Assembly (NCBI GenBank): GCA_019661865.1
Contig: JAIFWJ010000001.1
Coordinates: 110,809-174,808 of the forward strand
Origin: Candidatus Parcubacteria bacterium
GTDB lineage: Bacteria; Patescibacteriota; Minisyncoccia; Phycocordibacterales; Zambryskibacteraceae
Reading direction: 5' to 3'
DNA: 64,000 nucleotides
Positions 39,012-41,831 of this stretch are shown piece by piece; positions within the stretch are counted from its first letter, which is position 1; each line of letters starts with the position of its first letter. The notes under the pieces were generated by a model. The model was not told the DNA's origin, ran no database searches, and was given only the letters and a program-made list of their open reading frames with translations. A program made the translations under genes and the position numbers.

Positions 39012-41831
39012 TTATAACACAATATTGACAAGCCTGCCAGGGACTACCACTATGCGCTGTGGAGTGGCTCCGTTAAGCCATTTTTTCACTTCTGGGATAT
39101 CTAATGCAAGGGTCTTGACCTGACTTTCGTCTGTGCTCTTATCCAGAACGATAGTTGCTCGAGTTTTACCATTTACTTGCACAACGATGGTTACATCCTT
39201 CCCCTCGAGCTTCTTTTCATCGAATTCTGGCCAACTCTCAGTATGAATTGAATTTTTCTCCCCGATGCTCGACCAGAGTTCCTCTGTCACATGTGGTGCA
39301 AAGGTCGCTAACAACTTAAGAATAACCTTATACTCCATGGAGGATATAAAACTTTGTTTCTCTACACTATTAACATGAATCATAAGCGTAGAAATTGCCG
39401 TATTGAAGTTCATGGTCTCAATGTCATCCGAGACTTTTTTAATCGTTTGGTTTAGATGAATAATACTCTCCTCCGAGATCCGAACCTTGTCCGTCGAAAC
39501 CTTATCCTTCAATTTCCAAACTCTCTCAATAAACCTATATGGTCCCACAAGTGCATCCTCACTCCAGGCTATAGCTTGATCGAAGGGTCCCATAAACATT
39601 TCATACAGGCGCAATGTATCTGCACCGAAGCGCTTCACTATAGTGTCCGGATTTATGACATTCCCTTTGGACTTACTCATCTTCTCTCCCCCTTCGGCGA
39701 GTATTAGCCCATGAGACGTGCGCTTCTTGTACGGCTCATCTGTGGGTACGAGCTTAAGATCATATAAAAACTTATTCCAGAATCTGGAGTAGAGGAGATG
39801 GAGAGTAGTATGTTCCATGCCACCGTTGTACCAGTCCACAGGCATCCAATACTTGAGAGCCTTTTTCGATGCGAACTCCTTATCATTCTCTGGATCTGCA
39901 TATCTTAAGAAGTACCAAGAAGAGCCCGCCCAGTTCGGCATAACATCTGTCTCTCGCTTGGCGGGACTCTCACACTTGGGACACTTCACATTTACCCAAG
40001 TTTCTACATTAGCAAGTGGTGACTCGCCATCTGGACCTGGTTCGTACTTCTCCACTACTGGAAGCTCCACTGGTAAGTCGCTCTCTGGTACTGGTACAAC
40101 ACCACACTTCTCACAGAGGATGACGGGTATGGGCTCGCCCCAATATCTCTGGCGTGAGAAGACCCAATCGCGGAGTTTAAACTTAGTGACGAGTGTGCCA
40201 CCTGCGAATTTAATAATGTCTTTATAAACTTCTTTAGAAGTTTTACCATCGAACTTTCCAGAATTAGTAAGTATGCCAGTACCAGTGTATGGTTTATTCC
40301 GGATAAATTTCTGAAACAAAAGCGCATGATTCTCATCCACCACCTTCTGTTCTGCTTCATCTTTCGATAACCAGTGAACAGTAAAAAGATTCTTCTCATT
40401 CTCCTCCAACTTCTGATCATCCTTCTCTTCGTCTATAAGCTTAAAGTGGACTCCTGTGACTTCAATATTACGAGCAACATTTTTAGAAAAAGCGAAGTAA
40501 TGATGGTGACTCTTACCAGCAACCTGAACCACTTTCAAATTTTTATATCCTGTCTCTTCTTTAATCTCGCGAATTGCAGCTTCGACTGGATCTTCATCAC
40601 CTTCTAATCCTCCACCGATAAACAGAATTCCTCCATACTTCGGAGTCCAATCAAGTGCAAGAATCTTTCCGGTTTTCGGATTCTCGACTATTGCCACAAT
40701 GCTGTTTCTTAACTGCTCATCAGGTAGCACTTCTCCAGTAACAGGCTCAATAACCTCTCGTATAGGCAGTTTAAATTTAGTGGCAAATTCAAAATCACGC
40801 TCATCGTGTGCAGGTACGGCCATGATGGCACCTGTTCCGTAATTCGGCAGTACATAATCTGCAATCCATACAGGAATCTTTTCCTTAGTGGCAGGATTTA
40901 TGGCTTCGAAACCTTGGATCTCTACACCAGTCTTCTCCTTACCTTCTGACACGCGGTCAATCTCGGCCTTGTTCTTGGTTTTACTTATATAATCTTCAAC
41001 CTCACCATAATTCTTTATGGCAAGGTTACTAAGGATGAGTGGGTGTTCTGGTGCCAGTACAAGGTATGTGGCGCCGAAGATAGTATCTGGTCTGGTGGTG
41101 AAAATTTTCACCGACTTCCCGGTAGTGAGGTCAAATTCAATTTCCGCACCTTCGCTTCTCCCAATCCAGTTCTTCTGGCTTAACTTAATGCGTTCAGAAT
41201 AATCCAATCCTTCGAGATCTTTCTCCAGTCTGTCGGCATACTTAGTTATGGCAAGCATCCATTGCTCCTTCTCGCGCTTCTCCACAGTAGTACCGCAGCG
41301 CTCACACTTACCGTTTATCACTTCTTCGTTAGCAAGACCAATCTTGTCTTTCGGGCACCAATTTATAAATTGTTTATCCTTATATGCTAGACCTTTTTCT
41401 AGAAATTTAAGAAATATCCACTGAGTCCACTTGTAGTACTTCGGATCTGTAGTATTAATCTCCCGCGACCAGTCGAAGGAAAGTCCGAGGGACTTGAACT
41501 GCTCACGGAAGTTATCGGTATTCTCCTTAGTTACTACTCTCGGATCCTTACCAGTCTTAAGAGCGTAGTTTTCTGTTGGGAGTCCGAAGGCGTCCCAGCC
41601 TATAGGAAACATTACATTGAAACCCTGCATCCTACGTTTCCTAGAGATAATATCCATGGCCGTGTAGCCGCGCACATGCCCAGTATGAAGACCATCACCG
41701 GATGGATACGGGAATTCCATAAGTGAGTAGTACTTTTCTCTCTTATCTCCTGTTTTGGATTCGTAGAGTTTTTCTTCCTCCCACTTTTTCTGCCATCTGG
41801 ACTCTATTTCTTGATAGTTATACTCCGACAT
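39012..41831 (-). CDS. leuS: leucyl-tRNA synthetase with inserted Nudix-like domain
   Basis: HTGHVRGY (HIGH), KMSKSKGN, and CP1 editing region ([12 protein letters not shown]…[19 protein letters not shown]). Residues ~377-505 (nt 40317..40703) contain a canonical Nudix box [24 protein letters not shown]. Confidence 0.9.
   Translation of the reverse strand: [939 protein letters not shown]

Follow-up and report, generated by a model that had tools for sequence, protein, structure and literature searches.

The question raised by this locus is how a gene for leucyl-tRNA synthetase (LeuRS) comes to contain the complete signature of a Nudix hydrolase, and what such a module might do there. The gene, leuS, lies in the window, that is, in the whole analyzed stretch of 64,000 nucleotides from a Candidatus Parcubacteria bacterium (contig JAIFWJ010000001.1, positions 110,809 to 174,808), in which an earlier note had placed a Nudix pyrophosphohydrolase module inside LeuRS. 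The insert is very probably a Nudix hydrolase with catalytic activity that lies within a working LeuRS and forms an independent second site fixed on CP1, and the interpretation given in the earlier note is supported overall. The segment 40317..40703 of the minus strand, ending with DENHALL, is in frame with the remainder of the 939-residue protein, and the NUDIX profile PF00293 (gathering cutoff 21.1 bits) matched amino acids (aa) 375–505 of the whole protein (E-value = 9.5e-15, 55.2 bits) as well as the excised segment by itself (E-value = 6.8e-16, 58.9 bits). The Nudix box, described previously as a textbook one, agrees exactly with the pattern Gx5Ex7REUxEExGU, every defined position being occupied as expected (G407, E413, R421, E422, I423, E425, E426, G428, and Y429).

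The borders of the insert were delimited by alignment with the Thermus thermophilus LeuRS structure 1h3n, in which query residues 1–372 corresponded to Thermus residues 1–372 and query residues 513–714 to Thermus residues 375–581, giving a net insert of about 140 aa. The inserted residues 373–512 are therefore located where the Thermus enzyme has two residues, 373 and 374. The stretch of about 190 residues previously counted between PIREVI and the FKLRDW block was found again as aa 362–550. The location proposed for the insert, beyond the end of CP1, needs a refinement, since the editing-domain profile PF13603 is broken by the insert between positions 146 and 149 of 185, and about 37 CP1 residues (aa 513–550) follow before the FKLRDW...SRQRYWG block. 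Thus, the Nudix domain is nested within CP1 and was not added after it. The insert has a GC content of 0.39, toward the lower limit of the range within the gene. The coordinates of all features are given in Table 1.

Table 1. Features of the window, with the parts of the LeuRS gene first and the remaining genes last
Feature	Position in the window	Strand	Residues and remarks
leuS, complete LeuRS open reading frame (ORF)	39012..41831	-	939 aa and stop codon; single frame without interruption (ORF list)
Catalytic (Rossmann) domain, N-terminal half with HIGH motif and ZN1 region	41187..41831	-	aa 1–215; PF00133, PF09334
CP1 editing-domain core	40737..41174	-	aa 220–365; PF13603 positions 1–146 = aa 220–367
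Inserted Nudix hydrolase domain	40296..40715	-	aa 373–512
Nudix box, predicted metal-binding and catalytic helix	40545..40613	-	aa 407–429 (translation)
Last CP1 segment, leading the chain back to the catalytic body	40182..40295	-	aa 513–550; PF13603 positions 149–183; Thermus 375–412
Catalytic domain, C-terminal half with KMSKS	39552..40181	-	aa 551–760
GGEK/KMSKS region without leucine-specific domain	39669..39700		aa 711–721 of LeuRS
Anticodon-binding and C-terminal tRNA-binding domains	39015..39551	-	aa 761–939; PF08264 at aa 792–903; Thermus 637–875
Free-standing Nudix-domain ORF	10867..11373	-	168 aa; PF00293 29.7 bits
TrpRS-type gene	9858..10811		Adjoins the free-standing Nudix ORF
AspRS/AsnRS-type gene	8562..9857		Neighbour of the TrpRS-type gene and the free-standing Nudix ORF

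The host gene is a bacterial LeuRS on every sequence test. The whole protein scored 992.6 bits with TIGR00396 (leuS_bact; cutoff 548.4), the match being in two stretches owing to the insert; the best of the solved LeuRS sequences in the PDB matched with an E-value of 2.7e-224, and the Pfam domains tRNA-synt_1, LeuRS editing domain PF13603 (E-value = 1.9e-63), and Anticodon_1 were found. The HIGH motif is present as HTGH (aa 49–52) and KMSKS at aa 717–721 (nt 39669..39683), and the N-terminal and C-terminal catalytic halves had mean identities of 72.5% (to 110 relatives) and 78.4%, respectively. The editing site is intact (TTRPDT at 245–250, GTG at 332–334, D343, and D346), and its residues were 100% conserved in 111 relatives and likewise in 65 relatives from GTDB. 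The leucine-specific domain is absent: the alignment with 1h3n skips Thermus residues 582–636 at query residues 714–717, and the tetrapeptide GGEK stands before KMSKS. As the synthetic and editing motifs are intact, the Nudix domain is an addition and not a substitute for a decayed function; the possibility that it replaces a decayed editing site was ruled out because the editing motifs are invariant in the relatives.

An AlphaFold2 model of the full LeuRS, built with 111 aligned relatives, had a mean pLDDT (predicted local distance difference test) of 90.8 and a pTM (predicted template modelling score) of 0.81, and the insert was modelled at pLDDT 87–97. The strands of the modelled insert comprised residues 374–384, 389–394, 405–408, 432–447, 452–465, and 484–488, and the helices comprised the box helix (415–427) followed by 490–496 and 500–509; in the model, this order is that of a Nudix alpha/beta/alpha sandwich with the box on a loop–helix–loop. 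The domain modelled by itself reached a pLDDT of 93.7. A low-confidence linker was seen at neither junction of the insert in the full model, which suggests rigid docking of the Nudix domain on CP1.

The insert recurs in related bacteria, as a survey of LeuRS from the candidate phyla radiation (CPR) and beyond revealed. Of the 120 LeuRS closest to that of the window (54–70% identity), drawn from NCBI, JGI, ENA, and UniRef, 119 have a precomputed PF00293 match; their names refer to Paceibacterota, Minisyncoccia, Nomurabacteria, or Parcubacteria. A scan of GTDB, with one genome per species and two short peptide patterns taken from the insert, yielded 455 confirmed stretches, and the best 80 of them belonged to Patescibacteria (Kaiserbacteria, Uhrbacteria, Saccharibacteria, and Paceibacterota) and to many gut or rumen metagenome-assembled genomes (MAGs) labelled Bacilli, Tenericutes, or Mycoplasmatota. 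The Nudix box was within an ORF bearing LeuRS motifs in 76 of these 80 best loci; the box-bearing ORFs not cut by a contig end were mostly about 940–1030 aa long, and they align end to end with the window LeuRS, usually in one segment across the insert. For the gut Bacilli LeuRS of locus L041, a Nudix domain was present in all 120 nearest relatives. When 1.84 billion cluster representatives were searched exhaustively by HMMER with the profile of the insert, 1635 matches were obtained at E ≤ 1e-3, and LeuRS or LeuRS fragments accounted for 104 of the best 150; a word-indexed protein search with the insert alone returned only three fragments. Thus, the arrangement is not peculiar to this genome and is found at the same position in hundreds of independent assemblies. 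It should be noted that the gut Bacilli proteins (L041 is from the gut Bacillota MAG SIG208) have KMGKR for KMSKS and have lost the zinc-binding CxxC cysteines.

Among the 111 relatives, the mean identity of the insert to that of the window was 41%, versus 66–78% for the editing core and catalytic domain. The residues of the box were nevertheless retained: G407 in 110 of 110 sequences, E413 as E in 94 and as Q in 15, R421 in 96, E422 in 111 of 111, E425 in 107, E426 in 109, G428 in 110, and position 429 as Y in 100 and F in 10; R375, W395, K450, R454, E479, and W487 were also nearly invariant. In the full-length GTDB proteins, G407, E413, R421, E422, W395, K450, E479, and W487, all of which lay outside the search pattern, were found in 65 of 65. 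This conservation pattern is that expected of a domain selected for catalysis. The pairwise identities of the Nudix domain and the LeuRS core in the same 65 proteins were correlated (r = 0.57), a co-variation that fits long co-inheritance.

The related proteins (designated by P numbers) revealed further variants of the arrangement. LeuRS with two or three Nudix copies were found (P0004, P0007, P0014, P0015, P0018, P0019, and P0021), and a second insertion site (site 1) was located directly ahead of the editing domain, the window-type site (site 2) being after it: P0007 carries two copies ahead of the editing domain and a third behind it, P0015 two ahead, and P0115 a single copy, ahead only. 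Positional orthologues of every copy occur in other proteins, and the site-1 copies are 54–59% identical to site-2 copies of other LeuRS, which indicates that the module was duplicated inside leuS and not captured anew; the possibility that each site had independently acquired a module from a different Nudix family was thereby ruled out. The strict box was present in 114 of the 153 Nudix domain segments, including that of the window. A variant box, GG.E.GQT..E.A..[AMQ]E..EETGY, was found in P0004 (412–568), P0007 (387–543), P0114, P0123, P0073, and others; it keeps the three catalytic Glu, with Q replacing the first Glu and A, M, or Q replacing the Arg. Within LeuRS this variant constitutes a paralogue type of its own, the activity of which may be altered. 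In LeuRS P0228, P0138, P0224, P0243, and P0264, an alpha/beta-hydrolase (PF00561/PF06821) precedes the editing domain and a Nudix domain follows it, P0138 apparently having two alpha/beta-hydrolase units.

The same Nudix type was also identified in other hosts. P0046 (1345 aa) is an IleRS (TIGR00392, 775 bits) with this domain at aa 252–405 and a histidine-phosphatase domain at aa 665–809. P0121 is a 519-aa RNase PH-fold (PNPase-N-terminal-like) protein (L082, 4001..5560) with the domain between its two Pfam halves; read-through under an alternative genetic code was excluded for this gene, as the frame closes with consecutive stops. In P0080 (1318 aa), a GNAT–Nudix–GNAT–M17 (leucyl) aminopeptidase protein, a related Nudix domain is present twice.

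According to the proposed mechanism, a Nudix pyrophosphohydrolase of about 140 residues, nested in a CP1 surface loop and, in the model, packed rigidly on CP1, would cleave pyrophosphate bonds, predicted targets of its catalysis being Ap3A to Ap6A (diadenosine polyphosphates, ApnA), adenosine tetraphosphate (p4A), and Np4N-capped RNA ends. The module would clear or recycle such compounds beside LeuRS in organisms with very small genomes, and leucylation and post-transfer editing would be left unchanged by it. A polyphosphate-bridged dinucleotide, a nucleoside polyphosphate, or a cap-like structure (ApnA, p4A, or dinucleoside polyphosphate, NpnN) is tentatively proposed, by analogy with the nearest characterized relatives, the fold neighbours, and the by-products of adenylate-forming synthetases, as the likeliest substrate class. 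By profile, the nearest solved sequences were AvrM14 (3e-8) and the lupin Ap4A hydrolase (8e-7), followed by Dcp2, DIPP, and the Aquifex aeolicus Ap4A hydrolase, and AvrM14 has the K..(N/Q)R motif in common with the insert, at K450 and R454. Nudix ApnA hydrolases have a stacking Tyr 16–17 residues past the box, and a Tyr 16–18 residues downstream of the box was reportedly defined as the ApnA hydrolase signature by Dunn et al. in 1999. In the window, Y445 (+16) and F446 (+17) follow the box, and the 111 relatives have F in 67 and Y in 42 sequences at the first of these positions and F in 56 and Y in 45 at the second; an aromatic residue is always present, but not always Tyr. Synthetases make ApnA and p4A from their adenylates, which provides a rationale for the fusion. 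When the nested active Nudix domain and its substrate class are taken together, this overall best explanation is about as probable as its opposite.

Several observations weigh against this explanation. All curated NCBIfam Nudix models searched (RppH, NudB, MutT, NudE, and others) scored far under their cutoffs for the insert: 17–22 bits versus 116–139 for the RppH models NF001936/7/8, 28.9 versus 103 for the NudB dihydroneopterin-triphosphate diphosphatase NF006961, and 14.3 versus 97.9 and 18.7 versus 148 for the MutT 8-oxo-dGTPase models TIGR00586 and NF008044, respectively. The identity to any characterized Nudix protein is at most 24%, and the top structural neighbour, 2azw, is itself uncharacterized. 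LeuRS is a comparatively weak producer of Ap4A, and, together with the presence of the module in other hosts, this poor ApnA output makes the rationale for fusion weak. The same Nudix type occurs in unrelated hosts and in free-standing proteins of about 160 aa (e.g., P0044, near dnaA and dnaN), so that physical coupling to the chemistry of LeuRS is not required. Finally, a close syntenic relative lacks the module: P0220 (781 aa, JGI sample 3300071358) is a LeuRS 70–75% identical to that of the window from which aa 360–544, i.e., the Nudix domain and the last CP1 segment, are missing. The order of genes is alike in both (YchF, a gene upstream of leuS, LeuRS, and a sigma-70 region 4/HARE-HTH protein), the upstream gene being DUF5671 in P0220 and a 181-aa ORF without a Pfam match in the window. 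P0220 also has AVPADDDRD instead of AVPAHDERD, and its editing domain may be decaying.

According to a rival view, the insert is a housekeeping Nudix enzyme (MutT-type, RppH-type, or another hydrolase of nucleoside diphosphates linked to a moiety X) lodged in a permissive loop of an essential, constitutive gene and kept for co-expression in streamlined genomes, and it is mechanistically unconnected with leucylation, editing, or tRNA. Such an origin is possible, although rather doubtful. It is consistent with the ordinary genomic contexts of the free-standing members of the subfamily, whose best, sub-threshold NCBIfam match is RppH, with the occurrence of the same type in the IleRS P0046, the RNase PH-fold P0121, and the GNAT/M17 peptidase P0080, and with P0220, which manages without the module, while the unrelated alpha/beta-hydrolase at a CP1 site of P0228 and P0138 suggests that CP1 loops are permissive. 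LeuRS is nevertheless by far the dominant host among the best 150 matches, although a single old, vertically inherited insertion would give the same picture; the junctions are modelled as rigid and not as flexible tethers, and the fact that the module was duplicated repeatedly in leuS, each copy being matched by positional orthologues, suggests selection in that context. A closer link with RNA, in which CP1, a binder of the CCA end, would present a tRNA or RNA terminus from which the Nudix domain strips a pyrophosphate-linked adduct (a 3'-pyrophosphate from RelA/SpoT-homologue toxins, ADP-ribose, or a 5' NpnN or nicotinamide adenine dinucleotide (NAD) cap), is unlikely. Binding of RNA 3' ends is common to three hosts (LeuRS CP1, IleRS CP1, and the RNase PH-fold protein), the nearest characterized sequence relatives are RNA-decapping Nudix proteins (AvrM14, Dcp2, DIPP, and RppH), and the combination of Nudix and histidine phosphatase in the IleRS variant would fit a two-step removal of a terminal diphosphate; however, mycobacterial MutT1, an enzyme of nucleotides and ApnA, has the same pairing, the GNAT/M17 host does not act on RNA, and the reading is purely inferential.

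A non-catalytic role, in which the Nudix fold would provide structural support, bind tRNA, or sense nucleotides allosterically and might, for instance, make up for the absent leucine-specific domain, is improbable. The window LeuRS does lack that domain, ligand-sensing Nudix domains exist (NrtR is among the fold matches), and in a LeuRS-Nudix subgroup the first Glu of the box is replaced by Q and the Arg by A or M; however, the box of the window is fully canonical and the metal-binding Glu is nearly invariant across very divergent sequences. As the Nudix and the leucine-specific domains are both missing from P0220, the former is not a necessary substitute for the latter, and a requirement for the Nudix domain to offset that loss was ruled out. 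An assembly chimera or a mis-joined frame has a negligible probability, being excluded by the continuous frame and by the fact that hundreds of independent assemblies, obtained from several sources, share this architecture with the insert similarly placed.

Comparison of the preferred arrangement, an active Nudix domain nested in LeuRS, with known systems places it as follows. The model superposes on the LeuRS crystal structures of T. thermophilus (1h3n/2bte) and Escherichia coli (4aq7/4arc) with a TM (template modelling) score of about 0.8 and the same domain order, and the HIGH, KMSKS, CP1 T-rich, and GTG motifs and the catalytic Asp are common to all of them; relative to the Thermus enzyme, that of the window has the 140-aa Nudix domain at Thermus 373–374 and is without the leucine-specific domain. 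The latter domain is present in most bacterial LeuRS but is not universal, and its loss is a known natural variation. The LeuRS of Mycoplasma mobile has no CP1 altogether, whereas in the window CP1 is intact and enlarged by the Nudix domain. In M. mobile LeuRS (3ziu) and other minimal LeuRS, a tetrapeptide stands for the leucine-specific domain, as GGEK does in the window; the M. mobile tetrapeptide is GKDG (PMC3643597). The small monomeric Nudix proteins (3i7u of A. aeolicus, human NUDT2 4ijx, T. thermophilus Ndx1 1vc8, AvrM14 8dp8, RppH, and Dcp2) are just 12–24% identical to the insert, and the ApnA-hydrolase/DIPP/decapping group is free-standing, whereas the window Nudix domain is nested in another enzyme. 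The Nudix domain of mycobacterial MutT1 (5ggc; Rv2985, 9cxx) was among the fold matches, and its pairing with His_Phos_1 recurs in the IleRS P0046; MutT1 is, however, a free two-domain enzyme, whereas a phosphatase domain is absent from the window LeuRS. The presence of an unrelated enzyme domain in a class Ia synthetase has a precedent in the IleRS with an N-acetyltransferase (NF040702, ileS_w_GNAT, a curated 'exception' model), in which both host and guest differ from those considered here; unlike this IleRS-GNAT protein, LeuRS-Nudix has no curated model in NCBIfam.

Full-text literature searches, whose coverage left out most subscription journals, found no paper on the LeuRS-Nudix architecture. 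LeuRS and Nudix are each well known, and their combination can already be seen in the Pfam matches assigned automatically to public sequences, among the deposited names of which is that of a 2015-era Nomurabacteria genome; the arrangement is thus catalogued but uncharacterized, widespread, and conserved. Many LeuRS-Nudix proteins are called merely 'class I tRNA ligase family protein' by NCBI, and the insert appears to degrade the automatic naming of an essential gene. Few enzymes have been studied as thoroughly as the aminoacyl-tRNA synthetases, and, to our knowledge, catalytic guest domains are rare in those of bacteria. In the present case, the proofreading domain of LeuRS houses a conserved and apparently catalytic pyrophosphatase in Patescibacteria/CPR and in an abundant clade of gut Bacilli, both of which are very large and poorly understood groups. 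Activity of the Nudix domain on synthetase by-products such as ApnA or p4A would create a direct link between aminoacylation and the homeostasis of alarmones and nucleotides in minimal cells. Were tRNA or RNA ends its substrate, the domain would represent a novel type of quality control in translation, charging, proofreading, and end repair being combined in the synthetases of reduced-genome bacteria. If it is only a passenger, it would exemplify the packing of enzymes by streamlined genomes into permissive loops of essential genes.

Elsewhere in the window, the standalone Nudix gene that the earlier note had pointed out beside trpS/aspS is borne out by its PF00293 score and by its neighbours of TrpRS and AspRS/AsnRS type (Table 1); its box is degenerate (GGKRIKRDRTILDTAIREFKAETQG). 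Three tRNA genes are clustered at 47227..47513, of which one is encoded on the minus strand and the other two are on the plus strand.

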